NCBI GenBank assembly: GCA_965226095.1
Contig: OZ245336.1
Location: 74,919 to 138,918, forward strand
Direction of reading: 5' to 3'
Length of the DNA stretch: 64,000 nucleotides
Source: Bdellovibrionales bacterium
GTDB taxonomy: Bacteria; Bdellovibrionota; Bdellovibrionia; Bdellovibrionales; UBA1609
Shown in pieces: positions 39,652-50,618 of the stretch. The position numbers and the translations under genes are program-made. Each line of letters opens with the position of its first letter. Position 1 is the stretch's first letter. Under the pieces are notes generated by a model. The model saw nothing but the letters and a program-made list of their open reading frames with translations. It was not told the DNA's origin and did not search any database.

Positions 39652-39728
39652 GGGGGCTTAGCTTAGTTGGTTAAAGCATCCGGCTCATAACCGGAGGATC
39701 GAAGGTTCGAGTCCTTCAGCCCCTACCA
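39652..39728 (+). tRNA. tRNA with CAT anticodon (Met, or Ile2 if lysidinylated)
   Basis: Hand-folded. D stem GCTT/AAGC, anticodon stem TCCGG/CCGGA with loop CTCATAA, T arm GAAGG-TTCGAGT-CCTTC, acceptor GGGGGCT/AGCCCCT (G1-U72 wobble), encoded CCA. Confidence 0.85.
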
Positions 39729-39731
39729 CTT
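39713..39731. repeat. attL core (3' end of tRNA-Met)
   Basis: Identical 19-mer to 62543-62561. Confidence 0.85.
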
Positions 39732-40957
39732 ATCTTCTTAACTATTGGAATTACTTGAATTTTTTTCTCACAATCTATCTCGCTGTGATTCTCGCTGTGA
39801 TTTTTAAAAGAACTTCCAAAAAGATTAAAAGCTTTGGTGGTTTTTTCTGCTGTATCTCTGTTTAAAAGAGCTACCACTTTGGCATACTTTTCTGTCATAC
39901 GACTTGAAGTATGACCAAGGCTTGCCTGCACAGAGGACATATCTCTTGTAGCTATTAAAGCCATTGTTGCATAGGAATGTCTTAGAATATGCGTTGATTT
40001 CCAAGGAAGCTTCAATGCTTTAAAGCCAGCATTAAAAGCTGATTGAATGGCATTGTATTTTAAAGCCTCTCCCTGTTTATCTGTGAAAAGCAAATCTGTA
40101 TCACCATTTTCCTCTTTCATCTGTTTTAATATCTGTATCAATTCATCAGATAAAATCAGAAGACGAACAGAGGCAGAAGTTTTTGTATCCTCTTCTAAAG
40201 ATGGTCTTTTTGTTTTATGGTCCCACCTTATTTTTCGGATAACTCTTGCCTTTCCCTGTTCCAATTCCACAGCAGACCAAAGCATTCCGCAAGCCTCACC
40301 AACTCTGGCTCCTGTAAGAACCATAAAAGTTGCAAGCCTCCAATAAACCGGATTACTTCTGTTTTGCCTTAACCACTTTATCCAATCTCTTAACTCCTCC
40401 GGTCTTGCATAGTAATCAGGACGCTGAGGAGGAACGGGTTTATAGTAGCAAAGCTGTCTGTGCTGTTTCGTAATGGGAACATTAAAATTCTCATCTACAA
40501 AGTTTCTATACCAATTTAATATGGCAGAGAGCAGTTGCAATTCATGCCTAAAAGTTTTCCGGCCCTTATTTTTAGCTGTAGGATGTTTCTTAAGCCAGTT
40601 TATCCATTTATGGACATATTTGGCATTAAGATATTCCATTTTAACTATGCTTAAAGGTCCTTTTGTAAAATATCTGAACCTTGCCTCGTAACCTTGCTGC
40701 GTAGCTGTTTTAAGTAAAGGAAAAGCCTCTTCCAAATACTGCTTAAAGCACTCGGAAAAAAAGACACTTTCTTTTTCCTGATAAAATTCTGAAGGGTTTT
40801 TTAAAAGTTGTTGTTTTTGTTTGTCATGCCAGACACAAGCTTCTGTTTTACTTTTAAAGGTCCTGCATGTTAGGCGGAAGCCTTTGACATAAACCTGTGC
40901 TTGATAACAAACTTTTCTTTGTCCATTTTTCTTTATATATCTTTTGATTATAGACAT
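39716..40957 (-). CDS. int: Tyrosine-type site-specific integrase
   Basis: LTGARVGE (catalytic Arg), HILRHSYAT (HxxR) and GHTSSRMTEKYAK (catalytic Tyr). The N-terminal arm-binding-like domain reads KRYIKKNGQRKVCYQAQVYVKG. The stop codon lies inside the tRNA/att core. Confidence 0.95.
   Translation of the reverse strand: MSIIKRYIKKNGQRKVCYQAQVYVKGFRLTCRTFKSKTEACVWHDKQKQQLLKNPSEFYQEKESVFFSECFKQYLEEAFPLLKTATQQGYEARFRYFTKGPLSIVKMEYLNAKYVHKWINWLKKHPTAKNKGRKTFRHELQLLSAILNWYRNFVDENFNVPITKQHRQLCYYKPVPPQRPDYYARPEELRDWIKWLRQNRSNPVYWRLATFMVLTGARVGEACGMLWSAVELEQGKARVIRKIRWDHKTKRPSLEEDTKTSASVRLLILSDELIQILKQMKEENGDTDLLFTDKQGEALKYNAIQSAFNAGFKALKLPWKSTHILRHSYATMALIATRDMSSVQASLGHTSSRMTEKYAKVVALLNRDTAEKTTKAFNLFGSSFKNHSENHSEIDCEKKIQVIPIVKKISGRG
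39779..39802. promoter_or_regulatory. Perfect 12-bp tandem direct repeat CTCGCTGTGATT x2 (candidate integrase arm-type sites)
   Basis: Read directly, inside the int 3' end. Near-identical pairs (CTCACTGTGATT TCGCTGTGATT) occur at 56800-56822 and 62405-62427 in the right-end arms. Confidence 0.5.
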
Positions 40958-41328
40958 GGTTTTTCCTTTCGGTTAAGCCATGCTTTTAGACTCTTGGGAC
41001 GAAACATAACTTTCTGGCCACACTTCACATAAGGAATTTTGCGAAGATAGACCCAGTTATGGATTGTCTTGGGAGCCACCCCCAGCATTTCCGCAACAGT
41101 TTTCACACTTACCAAATTGTCAAAGAGCTGTTCTGTCTTTGGAGAATTTTTTAGCTCCAAAGACAGAGTTGCCAGATTAAGTGCTTTTGTGTTGTTTGGC
41201 AATGTCCATGAAGCAGGCTGTCCAACCAGATTGCTTTGTGTTCTTATTGATTCTATGTGTCGATCTTGCTCTTCGTTTAGTTCTTCATTGTATGAGTTTT
41301 TAAATAAAAAGCTTAATTGCTTTTCCAT
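40948..41328 (-). CDS. xis: Excisionase/AlpA-type helix-turn-helix protein
   Basis: VKTVAEMLGVAPKTIHNWVYLRKIPYVKCGQKVMFRPKSLKAWL. Overlaps the int start. Confidence 0.8.
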   Translation of the reverse strand: MEKQLSFLFKNSYNEELNEEQDRHIESIRTQSNLVGQPASWTLPNNTKALNLATLSLELKNSPKTEQLFDNLVSVKTVAEMLGVAPKTIHNWVYLRKIPYVKCGQKVMFRPKSLKAWLNRKEKPCL

Positions 41329-41559
41329 AGCTTCTCCTTTGGGGAAAGAATTTTTAATTATTGCAAGCTCCTTTCATAGATGATTGTTTTGGGTGGTTCT
41401 TCTTTCCTGTGTAAAGACACACCATCTCTTTCCTTATATTTTTTTAGCCTCCACTCGCTTGCAGTAAAGGGACTACGTTCGCCTGTGGCGATGGCCTGAG
41501 GGCCACCCTTGACTGGGCAAGCTCGTTTCGGCTTACTTGCTTATTTACAAAAATATGTC

Positions 41560-41801: not shown

Positions 41802-41858
41802 ACGGACCGTGACCACCACCGCGAAACCAAAGGATGAGTGGGGGTGGTCACGGTCCGT
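41802..41858. other. GC-rich 16-bp perfect stem-loop (ACGGACCGTGACCACC ... GGTGGTCACGGTCCGT)
   Basis: Read directly, with a 25-nt loop, in an otherwise AT-rich non-coding stretch upstream of xis. Confidence 0.7.
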
Positions 41859-42280
41859 ATCTGGAAAAACCTTTTATTTTCAGATATTTAAGAGAAATGA
41901 AAAGTTTTCGACTTTGCATCTGTGTTTGCGATCTATGCTCATGATTTCCTCATACTTTGAAACCCAAAACATTGCTTTAAGAACCCTGTTAGCTGTTGTT
42001 TACTGTCTTCAAAAGTGAAATTTTCTAACCTCCAAACCTTCAGTAAGCCTTCTTTATGGGAAGCCTTAGCGATCAAAATAGCTACCTATAGAGAATTTTT
42101 CTTGTCTCTTTTTTTAAACCTAAGCCTGTCAATCGATTGATAAATTGAACCAAAAACTTCTAAAGTGAATGTGATACGAAGACTGAAACATGATCTTTCC
42201 AGTATATGAAAGGGTCAAAATCCTTCTCTCTCATGCCCCCGATAAAGGGTTAAGGGGGCATTCGGGAGGGCGGATTTTTG

Positions 42281-42580
42281 TTATTTACTTATGTTAGTTT
42301 TTATAGAACTTGAACTGATTTCTGCTTCTTGGATAGAACGAGCTTCCTTTAAAGAAAGACTTTTGGCAAACAAACCCCTAGCTGTTCTAACAACCAAGAC
42401 TTCCACAATATCTCTCTCATTAAGCTTTTCATAAGAAGTATTGATAAATTCTGTTACAGTAGAAAAATATACATCTTGTTTATTCTTTTTATCCCAAATA
42501 GCACCAAAACCAATATCTGGCATAATTCGCCGAATAGCCCCTTTTGCTGTCCCTTTAATTTCTAATATCTTTTCATACAT
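42281..42580 (-). CDS. Cold-shock-domain (OB-fold)-like small protein
   Basis: GTAKGAIRRIMPDIGFGAIWDKKNKQDVYFS...NERDIVEVLVVRTARGLFAKS follows the G.V....GFGFI....DVF.H...L..G..V.F.......G..A pattern. Confidence 0.6.
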   Translation of the reverse strand: MYEKILEIKGTAKGAIRRIMPDIGFGAIWDKKNKQDVYFSTVTEFINTSYEKLNERDIVEVLVVRTARGLFAKSLSLKEARSIQEAEISSSSIKTNISK

Positions 42581-42633
42581 CTAACTTGCCTCTAGTTTCT
42601 ATCCTTTTTAACCGTAAAACTGTACATCCTCTC

Positions 42634-43545
42634 TCATATATCAAGTAATATCTTTCTATATCTTCTTTCATTTGGTTTTAAAGACATTAGGTCTTTACGT
42701 TCATTAATTATCTTCACTAAACACTTACGAGAAACATCACAGACGAATTTTACGGGATTTTTTACCTTCTCAAACAATTTGTTGAGATTGGATTCACCAC
42801 CATGAACAATTCGGTTTCTCGCATTATATACCTCTTTTAATTCGTCATAAAATTTTTGTTTATCTTCTGGATCAAGTAATTTTAAAATAGATCCACATAC
42901 TTTTAGCTGTGTTTCGCCTGGTCCCCCAAAGAGTGATTCCCAAGCAATTACACCATCAACTATTGCATCAATAGGGTGTCGGCGTTCAGAAAGTATTAGA
43001 TGCAATCGATCAAACGCAATTTGAAAATGTTTATAAATAGAATCATCTATCTTTTTTAACCAATATGAAAATGAAATAAAGTCGTCATTTTCTAATACAT
43101 TAAAGCTATGGAAAGTAGTTGGGTTAGAAACATAGCTGCCTGGATGCTCTAAAGCAAAACCACTTTCTGAAAATGTAATAGTAATGCCATTATTTTTATT
43201 TAATGCAAAAAATAATGATACATTTATCTTTTTCATCAGTTTAGAAATTTCTTTATCAGGGTGAACTTTTAAATTCGATCTCTCTTTTCCTGATCCAACC
43301 ACCTTAATAGGAATTTTAATACATGCAATTGCCCCAAGAAGTTTATTATTTTCATGACCAGAAATAAGAGATGTGTATAGCCCGGGGTTATCTGCTGAAT
43401 CCAGGGGGCAGATTAACATATCCTCTTTTTCAATCCTTTTTTCAAGATGTATCCACGAAAGTCCTATAAAATAGGAAAACTTGGTTTGTTTTCCTTCAGC
43501 AAGGTCTCTCAGGCTCTTTAATAAGATTTTTAATTCGTTTAACAA
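42634..43545 (-). CDS. Unknown N-terminal domain fused to a C-terminal HEPN-like domain (RNxxxH)
   Basis: C-terminal helical region ...AIVDGVIAWESLFGG...LKEVYNARNRIVHGG carries the Rx4-6H motif in its RN..H form. The N-terminal ~190 aa are unrecognised. Confidence 0.65.
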   Translation of the reverse strand: MLNELKILLKSLRDLAEGKQTKFSYFIGLSWIHLEKRIEKEDMLICPLDSADNPGLYTSLISGHENNKLLGAIACIKIPIKVVGSGKERSNLKVHPDKEISKLMKKINVSLFFALNKNNGITITFSESGFALEHPGSYVSNPTTFHSFNVLENDDFISFSYWLKKIDDSIYKHFQIAFDRLHLILSERRHPIDAIVDGVIAWESLFGGPGETQLKVCGSILKLLDPEDKQKFYDELKEVYNARNRIVHGGESNLNKLFEKVKNPVKFVCDVSRKCLVKIINERKDLMSLKPNERRYRKILLDI

Positions 43546-44243
43546 TCTTCAAGCGTATAATTCATCTGGTTACATGAGTTTTGAAAAGCTCTCCGTACTA
43601 TTGTTTCACAGAACAAACTTATTTGATGAGAAATGTTCTCTCTATTTGATAACTTGAAACAGAACTCGTAATTAAAGCCCTCTTTTTTATTAATTAACTT
43701 ATTTAAAATATCTTGTTTTAACAAAATTTCAGATTTTTTTAATAAGTGAGGGTTTAAGGCCAAATTAGGTAATGGAGATCGTATAGGTTTCTTTATATAC
43801 TTTATAAGTAGATAAGGATAGTTTTTGATCGTTAAGTCAGATAAAAATTCAAAAACAGGATCTTCTTTCTCAATTTGCGGGATGTGACCACCACAGATTC
43901 TTCTTAGGTTATTGAAAGTTGAAAGTTCTATTTGTTTAACCCTAATTTCAAAGCAATCCTTAAACTCAAACAATTCACCTTGTTTAGTGTGTGAGTTCTG
44001 ACTGTTGTTACTTATAAATTCAATTTTGGAACCATCTTTAGTTTCACTTTGAGTAAACCATAATTGCCAGCATTCTTTCTTTATGTTATCAAGAAATTTT
44101 AATACATCTATTTGATTTTTATTTAATTTCAGTTCTTCAAGTTTAATTTTTTCGCTAAGCACGCCATCATAATTGATAATATACTGAATAAATTTAATCC
44201 CGAAATATCTCTTAATAATTTCATAGTTTTCCTGGTTCATCAT
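43539..44243 (-). CDS. Hypothetical protein, translationally coupled to the HEPN gene
   Basis: 234-aa ORF. Its stop overlaps the downstream start by 7 nt. No motif recognised. Confidence 0.6.
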   Translation of the reverse strand: MMNQENYEIIKRYFGIKFIQYIINYDGVLSEKIKLEELKLNKNQIDVLKFLDNIKKECWQLWFTQSETKDGSKIEFISNNSQNSHTKQGELFEFKDCFEIRVKQIELSTFNNLRRICGGHIPQIEKEDPVFEFLSDLTIKNYPYLLIKYIKKPIRSPLPNLALNPHLLKKSEILLKQDILNKLINKKEGFNYEFCFKLSNRENISHQISLFCETIVRRAFQNSCNQMNYTLEDC

Positions 44244-44436
44244 ACCTCCATAAGATTTAAATCTATCGAACTATTTGATCTATTTTTCATTTTATGAAAA
44301 TCACCTCCTACTATTCTAATCAAGTAAAAAAATTATGATTTGTATAAGAGAACAGAACTTAAAACCCTTCTCCTCTCCTTCATCTCCTCAAAAAGGGTTG
44401 AGGATATGTTCGAGAGAACAGATTTTATACCCATAC

Positions 44437-45654
44437 TCAAACTCTTTTCCTGTTAATGCTTTTTAAATATAACCTTCTTTGCTTGTACATAAGCCACATA
44501 ACAAGAAACTTATGTTTGAGTGAGATTTTTTTTATAAGTTCTTTAAAAAGATCATATGATCCAAAACTACGAACATACATAGTAATATTCAAGGCAGTCC
44601 GCAAAAAAACATTTAGTATCTTTTTTTTATATTTTTTTATCTTTGATTGTTCTTCCTTTTTAAATTCTTTCTTTATTTTTTCAAACATAAAAATGATTTC
44701 TTTATCTATATCTGGATTTTGACTAATCATTTCCAAATTCTTCTGCCAATTATCAGATTGTTTTTTCTTTCCCAGATTAACAGATAGAGATAACGAATAG
44801 CTTGGATTATCTTCTGCTTTCATACTATTTTCTAATAGTTCCAATATTTCTATAAATATTTCTGGCTTCAATATAAAAGAGGGCTTTCCCATAAATGAAA
44901 ATTTGTTAAAGTATTGATGCTCATTCAGATCACTCTGCCTTAACCACTCTTTCATCGCGCTAACGCTCATATCCCATACAACTGTTATTCTAGAAAAAGG
45001 GCAATCTTCTATTTTTAATACTTTTTTTCTGACTTCCAGAAGCCCATGATGAATTCTTGTTATAAAATCATCTAATACATTTTCTACTCTCATGACTCTA
45101 ATTGGAGGTGTTGCAAACCATAGTGGTAAACCTATTACCAGATGCCCTTTCCCAATACTGTTAACATTTTTATTATACGATGGTTTGTTTATTTTATCAT
45201 CAATTGACTTCATTACTTCATCAGCAACAAGCCTCTGTTTATGTCTTAGAGGACGTGCCATATTCACTTTATTTATTAGTTTTTTAAATTTCTTTTTTTC
45301 CAAATTTCCTACATCATTCCACTCTTTCATTGCCTCACTTATCTCTTTTCCATTGTTATATGCAAATACCTCAGTTATTTCAAACCATGTTAAACCACTT
45401 TTTGTGTGACTTAAACCAGTAGAGTTTTGATAAATAAAACTGTCTCCAGGGATATCTGTACCCTGTCTCTTTATTGGATAAGGTATTGTTAGGGATGCTA
45501 ATTCTTTCTCCATATCACTAGATGTATTCTCCTCCTTCTTTATCCAATATTGCTCTCTGAGATAAGAAATTTTATTTTTATCTTTTATGTATTTCCACTC
45601 TGGATGCTTTTTTCCAATATCTGTATATAAGATAGACAAACCAAGTTTCTTCAT
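44437..45654 (-). CDS. Hypothetical protein (405 aa), immediately downstream of the NYN gene
   Basis: Long ORF in AT-rich DNA, 12 bp after the NYN stop. No motif recognised. Confidence 0.6.
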   Translation of the reverse strand: MKKLGLSILYTDIGKKHPEWKYIKDKNKISYLREQYWIKKEENTSSDMEKELASLTIPYPIKRQGTDIPGDSFIYQNSTGLSHTKSGLTWFEITEVFAYNNGKEISEAMKEWNDVGNLEKKKFKKLINKVNMARPLRHKQRLVADEVMKSIDDKINKPSYNKNVNSIGKGHLVIGLPLWFATPPIRVMRVENVLDDFITRIHHGLLEVRKKVLKIEDCPFSRITVVWDMSVSAMKEWLRQSDLNEHQYFNKFSFMGKPSFILKPEIFIEILELLENSMKAEDNPSYSLSLSVNLGKKKQSDNWQKNLEMISQNPDIDKEIIFMFEKIKKEFKKEEQSKIKKYKKKILNVFLRTALNITMYVRSFGSYDLFKELIKKISLKHKFLVMWLMYKQRRLYLKSINRKRV

Positions 45655-45666
45655 GTCGATCTGTAT

Positions 45667-46455
45667 TCAACCCCAACTTTTTGGTTTAGAAATTCCATTG
45701 ACTACAGTAGGAAACTGACTATTTTTTAAATGCTCTTCTGTTAAGCTAATAGTCTTATTTGATATTTTTTGCAAATCCTGATGAGCGCCTAAAGGAACAA
45801 TAACTCCCTTTTCAGTTTCAGTAGGAGTGATAACAACCACTCTCTTCTTTAATTTCTTTCTGGCAAACCAAAGAGGTAATTTTAAATCTGTGTCATTTGA
45901 TAATAGAACTATTGAACCTATGTTTTCCTTACAACAATCATATATGATATGTGTTGCGATATTAACATCTGTCTCCTTTTCTTTATACTTAAAAAACGGG
46001 CTAATATTTTTTCCTAGAATATTTTTCAGTTGTTTTAACTGTTTAGAGTTTTTTATGACAAGTGATGCATTTATATGCCGCTTTTTAAATTTTCCATATA
46101 TTATTTCCACTTTTTGAAGTGTTTGAACAGTTCGTAAATACATATTTTGTCTAATAACATTAGACGGGTCTTTTGGTTTTCTTTTTACCTGGGCTGTAAA
46201 ATACTTTATTTGAGTTATATTATGCCAAGAAGGATCTAATACAGAATTAACAAGTGCTTCTATATTCAACCATTTATAAGGAGTGTTTTTTAATGAATAG
46301 TAAAGATTGAAGCCATCAATATAAACGATTGTATTAAAAGGATTTGAAGTTATTGGTTTCAAAATATTGCTCTCAAAAAAGACGAAAGCGACCATAAGGT
46401 CGCCTCGCACCCACCAGTCTAAACGAGTGGGGATATCATTTATTAATATCGGCAT
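45667..46455 (-). CDS. NYN-domain (PIN-like) predicted ribonuclease
   Basis: VYIDGFNLYYSLK, YFTAQV, KETDVNIATHII and VLLSNDTDL acidic motifs typical of NYN/LabA-like nucleases. The start may be the internal MVAF. Confidence 0.8.
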   Translation of the reverse strand: MPILINDIPTRLDWWVRGDLMVAFVFFESNILKPITSNPFNTIVYIDGFNLYYSLKNTPYKWLNIEALVNSVLDPSWHNITQIKYFTAQVKRKPKDPSNVIRQNMYLRTVQTLQKVEIIYGKFKKRHINASLVIKNSKQLKQLKNILGKNISPFFKYKEKETDVNIATHIIYDCCKENIGSIVLLSNDTDLKLPLWFARKKLKKRVVVITPTETEKGVIVPLGAHQDLQKISNKTISLTEEHLKNSQFPTVVNGISKPKSWG

Positions 46456-46547
46456 TTTTTATGAAAAATCAAGGTAAAAATAAAATTTTTTATTTTAATA
46501 TTCAGAAAAATGAAAATTCGCTACAAAAACAATCCCCATCCACGACC

Positions 46548-46763
46548 GAAGCCCCTGATCATTTCAAAAATCCGTGTAGCCAAATATGTAACACCATGTA
46601 GTACAAGATTGAAATATCGGGAAATATCCCGACATAAATACAGTAAAATGGTGGTCTCCTAATTTACCAATAAACACGGGGACTTGAAATACCCCGACAT
46701 TTCCTGAAATCTCTACATCATGAATTTTAAAAAGTTGTAAAATCAAATGGTCGGGGAGATAGG
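46548..46763. repeat. ~215-bp dispersed repeat, copy 1 (ends in a tRNA-Pro-like 16-mer TGGTCGGGGAGATAGG)
   Basis: Aligns by eye with 48680-48886 along its whole length. Contains hairpins TCGGG-AAATAT-CCCGA and CGGGG-ACTTGAAATA-CCCCG plus the palindrome ATTTCCTGAAAT. Confidence 0.8.
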
Positions 46764-46926
46764 TAAATTTCAAATGTAACTGTAAAACCTATAGTACGAA
46801 CAGTCCGTGTTTAGTGTAAAAAAAACCCATATTTTTCAAGTTTTTCTATACTTTATCCGACAAATAAAATATGCAAAAAACAATAAAAAAATTAATACAA
46901 ATAAAGCTATTTTAATAGGATTGACA

Positions 46927-48624: not shown

Positions 48625-48679
48625 AAAGGATTCATCGGATTAAAGTCATTTTTGCTTTAATTTCTTTCCAACAACCAAA

Positions 48680-48886
48680 GAAGCCCCTGACCAATTTAAA
48701 AATCCATGTAGCCAAATATGTAGCCCCATGTAGCCCAAAATTGAAATGCTGGGAAATACCCAGACATAAACACAGTGAAATAGCAGTTGCCTGATTTGTT
48801 AGGAATGTCGGGGACTTGAAATACCTCGACATTTCCTGAAATATTAATAATAAGAATTTTAAAAAGTTGTGTTGAAAAATGGTCGG
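48680..48886. repeat. ~215-bp dispersed repeat, copy 2
   Basis: GAAGCCCCTGA...AAATCCATGTAGCCAAATATGTAG...GTCGGGGACTTGAAATACCTCGACATTTCCTGAAAT...AAAAAGTTGT...TGGTCGG aligns with copy 1. Confidence 0.8.
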
Positions 48887-48969
48887 ATCGACTGGATAAA
48901 AGATAAAGTATTCAAAACACTAAAATACCTTAATAAATCAATAAAACCTCTCCTATTTTTCCTGTTAGT

Positions 48970-49244: not shown

Positions 49245-50618
49245 TTATATTGGATTCGCAACCTTACCTATAAATAAAATTTGCGCTGTTTTTCTTTCTT
49301 GTATCAGAAACAAAAAAGGATGATCTGCTTTGAATACAGGAGGCATAGAAGATGGTACCATCATTGCTACACCAGTAACAGCCACCGCTTCCGTTCCCTC
49401 TTCATTCACATCAATAAAAGACTTGTGTATAATATCTTTTATATATAAATTTTGATCTTCTTTATTTTTTATATTTTCAGCAAACTTTAAAAAATCTGCT
49501 TTCTTTTTGTTAAATGCTAAAGGCATATACTGTTTTAATATTTTTGAAAGTTTATAATTCTTTTTAAAAGTGAACTTTGGAAGATACACTGTTATTTCTC
49601 TCTCGAAAAAATCTTTTTTCCAGGTTTTAAGATTCTCTTTAGTCAATGATTTTTCAAGAGAAATTAAATCTGCTTTCTTTAAAGTCTTTTTTGTATTTGT
49701 CATAAAATTACCCTCATAATTATCTCTCTCCTTTGGCTTTCCTGGAAAATCCTTAGGTAGAAGAATTAACATGGAAAGCTCTTTACCTTTATAAGGTATT
49801 TCAAGCATCTGCATAGTTTCTGTTTCCATATAATTAAAAATTTCTGTCATTCTCATCATAGAAACTTTAATTTTTTCTTTTTTACTGATTATAAATCGCT
49901 GTTTTTTGGTATTTGATTTTTTAAATTTCTGATTCCAATCCCCTTTAAAATAAATAGTATTGATTAAACTTAAGCCACAAAGTTCGGTATCTGTAGGTTT
50001 ACAATCTTGAACCACATTTTTGAATTTATTCACAGTTTTATGTTCTATCCATTGATTGATTTTTTTTGCGGGAGTATTTATAAATACCTTTGCTCCATAA
50101 TATTTTTGTATATCTTTAAATATTCTTGATTGTAAGTTTTCTTGAATCCACAAAGCATTAGCTGTAAGAAATTGATACTCTGTTTTTGGCTTATTTAATT
50201 GGTTATAGATATTAGCTATCGCCGGCCTGCGAACATTGTTGTTTTCAGAGAAATAAAACACAGATTGCATTTCATTAGCCGTTTGACCATTAGCACCCTC
50301 ATAGGCCATTGCCATAGCTGTAAAAATCCCATAGGGAGAAAAAAATATATTTTTATTAGGTTTTTCAGAACTCAAATAGGCATACAAATTTAATGCAAAT
50401 TTGTTATTTGCAGAGATAATTACCTTTTTACTCTCTTTCGTGACGCCTGTATCATCTGCTTTTTTGAAATCAGCCTCTACTTCATTTGATTTTTCTTTTT
50501 TTAAATCTATTAAACCAGAAGTTTCTTTTCTAGAGTTTTTACTTACACATGAGATTGTCAATCCGACTAAAAGGAAAAGTAAAGTAATATATTTTATAAA
50601 AAGAATAATAACTTTCAT
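49245..50618 (-). CDS. Serpin (serine protease inhibitor) lipoprotein
   Basis: FSPYGIFTAMAMAYEGANGQTANEM, hinge/RCL EEGTEAVAVTGVAMMVPSS and FKADHPFLFLIQE. Lipobox LTISC. Confidence 0.9.
   Translation of the reverse strand: MKVIILFIKYITLLFLLVGLTISCVSKNSRKETSGLIDLKKEKSNEVEADFKKADDTGVTKESKKVIISANNKFALNLYAYLSSEKPNKNIFFSPYGIFTAMAMAYEGANGQTANEMQSVFYFSENNNVRRPAIANIYNQLNKPKTEYQFLTANALWIQENLQSRIFKDIQKYYGAKVFINTPAKKINQWIEHKTVNKFKNVVQDCKPTDTELCGLSLINTIYFKGDWNQKFKKSNTKKQRFIISKKEKIKVSMMRMTEIFNYMETETMQMLEIPYKGKELSMLILLPKDFPGKPKERDNYEGNFMTNTKKTLKKADLISLEKSLTKENLKTWKKDFFEREITVYLPKFTFKKNYKLSKILKQYMPLAFNKKKADFLKFAENIKNKEDQNLYIKDIIHKSFIDVNEEGTEAVAVTGVAMMVPSSMPPVFKADHPFLFLIQERKTAQILFIGKVANPI

Follow-up and report, generated by a model that had tools for sequence, protein, structure and literature searches.

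A predicted variable cargo segment with a HEPN-type protein gene in a tRNA-Met defence island of a Bdellovibrionales bacterium

Introduction

ApeA consists of a helical, catenin-like N-terminal domain (residues 1-198), a middle domain termed Mid (199-309) and a HEPN domain (335-583), and it is a tRNA anticodon nuclease that is activated by deoxydinucleotides (bioRxiv 10.64898/2026.01.26.701840). DARNA and ApeA both cleave tRNA anticodon loops. HEC-09 is a single-gene PADLOC candidate that is embedded in Hma systems and possesses the aspartates of MARF1-like NYN proteins (Payne et al., bioRxiv 10.1101/2024.01.29.577857). The present analysis concerns a gene array at positions 42281-46455 of a 64,000-nucleotide (nt) stretch of contig OZ245336.1 from a Bdellovibrionales bacterium, the whole of which is referred to here as the window. 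A first-pass annotation, made from the sequence alone, had described this array as five genes, encoding an NYN protein, two proteins of unrecognised type, a HEPN protein and a cold-shock protein, and had proposed that together they form one RNA-targeting defence or abortive-infection module. That proposal was not borne out, and the array is instead a region of variable defence cargo. It is probably the integrase-proximal cargo segment of a defence island of ~22.8 kb in a tRNA-Met gene, with four genes distributed over three separately assorting modules, one of which would be a single 536-amino-acid (aa) protein with a C-terminal HEPN domain.

Results

Gene structure of the array

Five open reading frames (ORFs) were found on the minus strand at the annotated positions (Table 1), and the spacings of 12 bp, 193 bp, a 7-nt overlap and 53 bp proved exact. 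The distance to the excisionase-like gene xis, annotated as about 0.9 kb, measures 952 bp and is ORF-poor, and all of the sequence motifs quoted in the annotation can be read in the translations. The number of genes, given as five, has to be revised. The ORFs of 234 aa (U234) and 303 aa (HEPN303) are one gene, because two otherwise identical assemblies keep the frame intact. The window reads GATTGTTAAAC at the junction, and a stop codon comes after TGT; the Logan contigs L001 (3379 bp) and L002 (2409 bp), which come from two independent short-read assemblies, read GATTGTTTAAAC and contain one continuous frame of 536 aa. Apart from this single gap, both contigs are 100% identical to the window. 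Relatives of the gene carry ...NYTLENCLNELK... at the same place. Full-length homologues of HEPN303 are 507-528 aa long, and their N-terminal halves match U234; the repaired protein aligns with its relatives in one high-scoring segment pair over residues 2-536; and AlphaFold2 (AF2), supplied with a 60-sequence alignment, returned a single confident model of the repaired protein with a predicted local distance difference test score (pLDDT) of 91.3 and a predicted template modelling score (pTM) of 0.90. The 7-nt overlap thus results from the loss of 1 nt inside one gene, and the array holds four genes.

The missing T is either a mutation of the strain or an assembly error in a homopolymer. A programmed frameshift at the junction was considered and rejected: no slippery heptamer is present, and the DNA that is identical elsewhere has the extra T.

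Distribution of the genes among related loci

Related loci were gathered through each of the proteins. Each of 12 such loci contains at most two of the four genes (NYN, U405, HEPN and the cold-shock-domain gene CSD), the window and the identical fragments L001 and L002 excepted. The first-pass annotation had treated the five genes as one unit and had named a lack of co-occurrence in other genomes as grounds for giving that view up; no other locus goes beyond two of the four, and every one of the four occurs alone or with other partners elsewhere.

In L003, a U405 gene with 83% identity stands with a tandem paralogue, a 28-aa remnant of NYN lies upstream and xis/int follow downstream, and in L004 and L005 U405 occurs alone in unrelated chromosomal surroundings. 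The HEPN protein is encoded without NYN, U405 or CSD in L006, L008 and L009. Its neighbours in L006 are SduA_C, AAA_14/DUF4143 and an integrase remnant; in L008 they are AbiEi/AbiEii and an integrase with 55% identity, which belongs to a Phage_integrase/HTH_17 pair whose second member is 52% identical to xis of the window. In L007, a degraded NYN gene precedes the HEPN gene beside conjugation/type IV secretion genes and an integrase. NYN (80%) and CSD (91%) bracket a different cargo in L011, namely SLFN_AlbA_2 and a 1190-aa protein, and xis/int follow. In L012, L013, L134 and L135, CSD comes directly after a restriction-modification gene of the MmeI family. The source clade of the related loci consists of metagenome-assembled genomes (MAGs) of Bdellovibrionales/Oligoflexia.

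The 536-aa protein and its family

From its sequence, the 536-aa protein is most likely one with a C-terminal HEPN RNase domain. An exhaustive profile search yielded 2,005 cluster representatives at E <= 1e-3, of which 793 also passed E <= 1e-10, and the family size is given as a lower bound of at least 2,005 clusters. Most members are 510-540 aa long and align end to end. The family extends over Bdellovibrionota, Actinomycetota and Alphaproteobacteria, and its distant members in Micromonospora and Hyphomicrobiales bear the NCBI name 'HEPN domain-containing protein'. Two weak Rhodococcus matches, annotated as 'hypothetical protein', were obtained in the plasmid search, and three distant loci were found in viral contigs. 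A scan of GTDB genomes gave one locus only, a disrupted copy in a Bdellovibrionales MAG.

In an alignment of 60 members with a mean column identity of 26%, the only invariant columns are R476 and H481, which form the Rx4H motif, and R528 (numbering of the repaired protein); E436, D426 and D430 are near-invariant. The interpretation of the RNxxxH segment as a HEPN Rx4-6H motif thus gains support, since R476 and H481 are strictly conserved in 60/60 diverse relatives and the recurring profile matches are all to HEPN families. On the Pfam side, these recurring matches among the 60 members are RiboL-PSP (4 members), MAE_28990 (3) and Apea (1); HEPN303 alone matches PF18735 (RiboL-PSP) below threshold, with E 9e-4 and 19.6 bits against 28.4. 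PADLOC gave one CARF_HEPN match (5.5e-4) in one of the 60, and no NCBIfam model matched the members. U234 has no match in Pfam, NCBIfam, PADLOC or PHROGs, and no model of these four collections covers the 536-aa family. The catalytic motif is kept invariant throughout a family of at least 2,005 clusters from several phyla, which indicates purifying selection.

The AF2 model is composed of helices at 1-190, a beta-rich part at 193-384 and helices at 386-536, and the Rx4H motif is placed at the end of a helix (462-480) within the all-helical C-terminal 150 aa. As regards the HEPN four-helix bundle, the C-terminus is modelled as all-helical, and Foldseek matched no HEPN structure. The weak Foldseek matches of the model are to alpha-catenin domains, which as a likeness to ApeA are suggestive only.

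Defective copies of the gene occur outside the window as well. In L010 (4271-10405), from a Bdellovibrionales MAG, the HEPN gene is interrupted by a 5.3-kb insertion with ORFs of 1108 aa and 283 aa, and P0015, P0019 and P0022 are truncated. Given the split copy and the truncated ones, the family decays often.

Table 1. Positions of the genes, non-coding elements and island ends in the window
Feature	Position	Strand	Description
NYN	45667-46455	-	262 aa
U405	44437-45654	-	405 aa
U234	43539-44243	-	234 aa
HEPN303	42634-43545	-	303 aa, TTG start
Repaired HEPN gene	42634-44243	-	536 aa; split by one-T loss in the T-run 43541-43542
CSD99	42281-42580	-	99 aa
Repeated element	46537-46764	-	~230 nt, upstream of NYN
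T1 hairpin terminator	44361-44426	-	-24 kcal/mol; in the 193-bp gap 3' of U405; diverged copy of T2
T2 hairpin terminator	42217-42279	-	63 nt, AAAATCC...GGATTTT, ~-27 kcal/mol; directly 3' of the CSD gene
Structured element upstream of xis	41446-41533	-	88 nt, GC-rich
xis	40948-41328	-	excisionase-like helix-turn-helix gene
int	39716-40957	-	tyrosine integrase gene
Left direct-repeat copy	39713-39731		19 bp, tRNA-Met 3' end
Right direct-repeat copy	62543-62561	+	19 bp, CCTTCAGCCCCTACCACTT; candidate attR

Non-coding elements and module boundaries

The array reads as three parts, consisting of the 5' element with NYN, U405 and T1; the HEPN gene; and the CSD promoter with CSD and T2. Each of these parts is seen elsewhere in other combinations. 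The T2 element also stands behind the final cargo gene of L003, L007, L011 and L012/13, where its stem shows compensatory changes.

The repeated element upstream of NYN is ~210-230 nt long. Its termini are inverted repeats (CCCCGACCA...TGGTCAGGGG), and it contains a palindrome that is invariant (CATTTCnGGAAATG) and the repeat GGCTACATGG three times. The window contains a further copy at 48669-48896 (-) and a partial one at 57043-57093 (-). Four to five copies are present in L003 (2482-2708, 3995-4166, 11438-11663 and 12952-13125), and others were found in L011 (2408-2574), L007 (6846-7037) and L006. In every case, the element points the same way as the cargo genes behind it, and the operons that it precedes in this island family differ in cargo. 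RNAalifold found no covariation that would support an RNA, and the element is a candidate for a portable promoter/operator or a miniature inverted-repeat transposable element. When metagenomes were scanned with the 27-nt core of the element, at least 120 high-GC JGI soil contigs (L014-L133) were returned that carry an unrelated conserved non-coding element (...CCATTCGACAGATTTCAGGAAATCTCGAGAAATTTCAAGC...) and none of the island genes; the CCATTCGACAGATTTCAGGAAATCTCGAGAAATTTCAAGC element has a divergent YciI-like gene at a distance of ~80 nt and genes resembling those of extracytoplasmic function sigma factors nearby.

Two further structures lie between the CSD gene and xis. The element at 41446-41533 is 83-86% identical in L003 and L011, and the three sequences share a consensus fold of -40 kcal/mol with three compensatory pairs; without an Rfam match, it is a candidate small RNA, separate from the cargo genes. 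At 41802-41858, a perfect palindrome with a 16-bp stem (-37.5 kcal/mol) is followed by a T-rich tract and is conserved in L003, L008 and L012/13.

The NYN, U405 and CSD genes

The assignment of the first gene to the NYN/PIN-like proteins stands, with a Pfam NYN score of 31.7 bits against a threshold of 24.2, and the acidic signature segments IDGFN, ETDVN and SNDTD are present in its translation. The first-pass annotation had mapped the array to no named system, which does not hold for NYN: the protein matches the PADLOC model of the HEC-09 candidate family (PDLC04163) with E 1.1e-35 and 121 bits over profile positions 5-189 of 203, and it matches phrog_7929 at 1e-36. The gene is thus already named as a candidate whose defence role is not validated. 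The ~230-nt repeated element is followed first by NYN in the window, L011 and L007, and the spacing from NYN to the next gene is an identical 12 nt in the window and L011. A hairpin with a T-run lies at 46385-46406 (-), inside the annotated N-terminus around Met21, and L011 has a frame change at the position equivalent to this Met21 region. The true start of NYN is probably downstream of the annotated ATG and may be Met21 or a later codon.

For U405, only 12 homologues were found among 5.8 billion proteins. They share an N-terminal core of ~300 aa with invariant or near-invariant D71, E92, E95, Q140, K154, K157, D195 and R200. The AF2 model has a pLDDT of 78.7 and a pTM of 0.79. U405 and U234 had both been called unrecognisable, and the searches agree in that no profile family was found for either and no fold match for U405: none of its members gives a Pfam signal, U405 has no NCBIfam, PADLOC or PHROGs match, Foldseek returned no match at E < 0.1 from the PDB or BFVD, and the gene is absent from the viral contigs searched. 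Foldseek gave a faint match to PaqCI with a probability of 0.18. In the model, the order alpha-beta-beta-beta-alpha-beta, together with acidic residues on strands 2 and 3, is reminiscent of restriction-endonuclease-like enzymes, a tentative likeness to which the PaqCI match lends faint support. The two tandem paralogues of L003 (5025-7555) are 411 aa and 420 aa long and 30% identical over the N-terminal core.

The CSD protein of the window, CSD99, has 65 homologues of ~92 aa with 69-92% identity, from Bdellovibrionales/Oligoflexia MAGs. Its own match to PF00313 is sub-threshold (E 0.026, 14.8 bits against 27), and some homologues bear weak or faint PF00313 marks. The top four PDB matches of the family profile are CspA, CspA, CspE and CspB, full-length but weak (E 0.07-0.7). 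All four are Csp proteins, which supports the earlier assignment, probably as a divergent cold-shock domain. Apart from these weak Csp matches, searches of solved structures by sequence, run with the window proteins and with four family profiles, gave no significant match. Segments resembling RNP1 (IGFGAI) and RNP2 (DVYFS) can be recognised. A weak match to the NCBIfam model retron_eff_Se72 (E 0.042) was also obtained; the retron reading was rejected, since the cluster has no reverse transcriptase gene and 39-48 kb yielded no Rfam match.

The most frequent neighbour of the CSD gene is an MmeI-type enzyme, which it follows straight away in four loci. In these, the pair of a type IIL gene of the MmeI family and CSD occupies 5055-8279 of L012, 1-1852 of L013, 4882-8279 of L134 and 4927-8282 of L135. 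No publication that connects MmeI with cold-shock proteins was found. The CSD gene of the MmeI loci has its own TATAAT box, and the similarity to the window starts ~45 nt 5' of the ATG.

The island

The location of the array in a tRNA-Met island, as first annotated, is confirmed by the 19-bp direct repeat found at 39713 and 62543. The tRNA-Met gene (CAT anticodon; 39652-39728, plus strand; ARAGORN, and Rfam tRNA with 73 bits) is the integration target, the two repeat copies bound ~22.8 kb (39.7-62.6 kb), and the low-GC block (26-31%) terminates at the right copy. The island also encodes MzaB, MzaC, PDC-S01 and an HNH protein of the GmrSD_C type, and given these genes it is a defence island. 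A 457-aa serpin with a signal-peptide-like N-terminus is a further cargo gene (49245-50618, minus strand; Pfam Serpin, 6e-94) and is unusual for a bacterial mobile element.

Discussion

Proposed organisation and mechanism

Based on the gene structure and the related loci, a possible organisation of the array can be proposed, in which the integrase-proximal segment would have received three modules independently of each other. Module 1 would comprise the repeated, promoter-like element, the HEC-09-type NYN gene for a PIN-like RNase, U405 and the terminator T1. Module 2 would be the single 536-aa protein with its helical N-terminal, alpha/beta middle and C-terminal HEPN domains, which would most likely act on its own in abortive infection, much as ApeA does. 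Its N-terminal and middle domains could keep the HEPN domain switched off until an infection is sensed. The HEPN domains would then pair to form a composite Rx4H site, cut tRNA or mRNA and arrest translation. The small CSD gene with its own promoter and the terminator T2 would constitute module 3, which elsewhere stands behind MmeI-type genes. The modules may have been juxtaposed by recombination between the shared non-coding elements and the shared flanking genes. RNase activity, a role in abortive infection and any anti-phage function are predictions throughout this scheme. By analogy, the 536-aa protein probably works like the stand-alone HEPN effectors of the ApeA or DARNA type. Membership in the ApeA family cannot be demonstrated for it. 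That the 536-aa family by itself represents a new, widespread single-gene abortive-infection system, which has converged on ApeA or diverged from it beyond recognition, is a tentative proposal.

Several observations weigh against the proposed organisation and mechanism. The comparison rests on ~12 loci of one clade, largely from metagenome assemblies and in part of low coverage, and the HEPN copy of the window is frameshifted and may be non-functional. All of the Pfam HEPN matches of the family are below threshold (MAE_28990 at 1.7e-3), sequence profiles matched no HEPN protein among solved structures, and Foldseek with the whole 536-aa model found nothing in the PDB at E < 0.2, which leaves the HEPN fold unconfirmed in three dimensions. 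Of the ApeA profiles run on the 60 family members, the PADLOC ApeA model matched 0/60 (E <= 1), HEPN_Apea matched 1/60 (E 0.098) and ApeA_NTD1 matched none. In the published assays, a representative of HEC-09 did not protect against the phages used (bioRxiv 10.1101/2024.01.29.577857). Moreover, the recurrence of NYN in first position ahead of differing partners could signal a functional link to the gene that follows it.

Alternative explanations

The view that all genes act together as a single RNA-targeting system of defence or abortive infection, with two RNases and an RNA-binding OB fold cooperating with partners, could draw on the tight packing of the genes on one strand in a defence island and on the presence of two nuclease-type domains and a CSD. 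The exact array is also found in L001 and L002, but this is 100% identical DNA and hence not independent. The single-system reading fails because the genes do not co-occur, each being found intact without the others; because terminator hairpins lie inside the array and CSD has its own promoter in other loci; and because two of the supposed five ORFs are one gene. It is accordingly regarded as highly improbable. A looser arrangement would be that of modular operons led by NYN, which might serve as a shared regulator, sensor or co-nuclease for an effector that is swapped in, with CSD as an optional trailing factor. The leading position of NYN after the repeated element, its remnant ahead of U405 in L003, the 12-nt spacing kept in two loci and the flanking of a different cargo by NYN and CSD in L011 all speak for such operons. 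However, L003 and L007 retain intact downstream genes behind an NYN gene that has been degraded or deleted; U405 (L004 and L005) and the HEPN gene (L006, L008 and L009) occur without it; HEC-09 is catalogued as a single-gene candidate; and recombination at shared homology arms would equally give a conserved flank with variable content. NYN-led operons are thus an unlikely explanation. Also unlikely is a reading of the conserved frame, composed of the ~230-nt element, the NYN leader, the trailing CSD and the shared hairpin, as a scaffold on which Bdellovibrionales islands exchange defence effectors, and in which NYN and/or CSD would be common cofactors, such as RNA-processing or RNA-binding helpers, for U405, for HEPN, for SLFN_AlbA_2 with the 1190-aa protein or for MmeI-type effectors.

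Functions outside of anti-phage defence were also weighed. The genes could be addiction or stabilisation modules, with toxin-like RNases that retain the island in the genome, or decaying cargo devoid of current function. Decay is indeed frequent, as seen from the frameshift here, the insertion in L010, the truncated P0015, P0019 and P0022 and the degraded NYN genes of L003 and L007; HEC-09 did not protect, and the genes adjoin int/xis. Against this, the HEPN family keeps its invariant catalytic motif across its clusters and phyla, the neighbours are recognised defence genes, and no cognate small antitoxin gene is evident. This explanation too is held to be unlikely. The organisation in three separately assorting modules remains the preferred one.

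Implications

The novelty of the locus lies mainly in the 536-aa HEPN family and in the unexplained linkages of CSD and NYN. For the reading of raw sequence, the array demonstrates how a false 'operon' can arise when one gene is frameshifted and cargo genes lie in a mosaic. If it is true that the family represents ApeA-like abortive-infection RNases, a large invisible family would be added to the annotation of defence systems, and it would provide a second, sequence-unrelated case of the N-Mid-HEPN design. Members of the island family differ in the cargo that lies between non-coding landmarks that stay fixed, and they thereby form a natural series of swaps. U405, with its orphan fold, and the recurrent MmeI-CSD pair are further leads.

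Comparison with known systems

CSD99 is similar to the CspA family (PF00313) in its size, in the full-length profile alignment to CspA, CspE and CspB and in its RNP-like segments; it differs from that family in its sub-threshold Pfam score, its C-terminal tail and its linkage to MmeI and defence genes in place of a housekeeping context. Contrary to HEC-09, which is defined as a gene embedded in Hma systems, NYN of the window heads a variable operon within a tRNA island.

The 536-aa protein resembles DARNA/PD-T7-3, HEC-08, HepT and AbiF/AbiD in the combination of a putative Rx4-6H HEPN RNase with a non-catalytic domain that is presumed to sense infection. The HEPN domain of DARNA and HEC-08 is N-terminal, whereas that of the 536-aa protein is C-terminal, and the PADLOC models of DARNA/PD-T7-3, HEC-08, HepT and AbiF/AbiD do not match the 536-aa family. 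The first-pass annotation had set the locus apart from the single-gene arrangement of ApeA; once repaired, the HEPN gene encodes one protein of ~530 aa with N-terminal, middle and C-terminal HEPN parts, which is that very layout. ApeA and the 536-aa protein are each one polypeptide of ~530-580 aa, encoded by a stand-alone gene in a defence-rich region, and they share a helical N-terminus, an alpha/beta middle part and a C-terminal HEPN domain (predicted for the 536-aa protein) with a catalytic Arg/His pair, a correspondence that applies at the level of layout only. No sequence relationship between the two could be detected.

As a whole, the island is comparable to the core defence hotspots (PMC10250203), in which conserved flanks enclose interchangeable cargo of the defence type; here the flanks consist of the 5' element, NYN, CSD, the hairpin and xis/int. 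It differs from the known hotspots in its Bdellovibrionales host, in flanks that are specific to this island family and in the shared hairpin terminators and the ~230-nt element that bound the cassettes.

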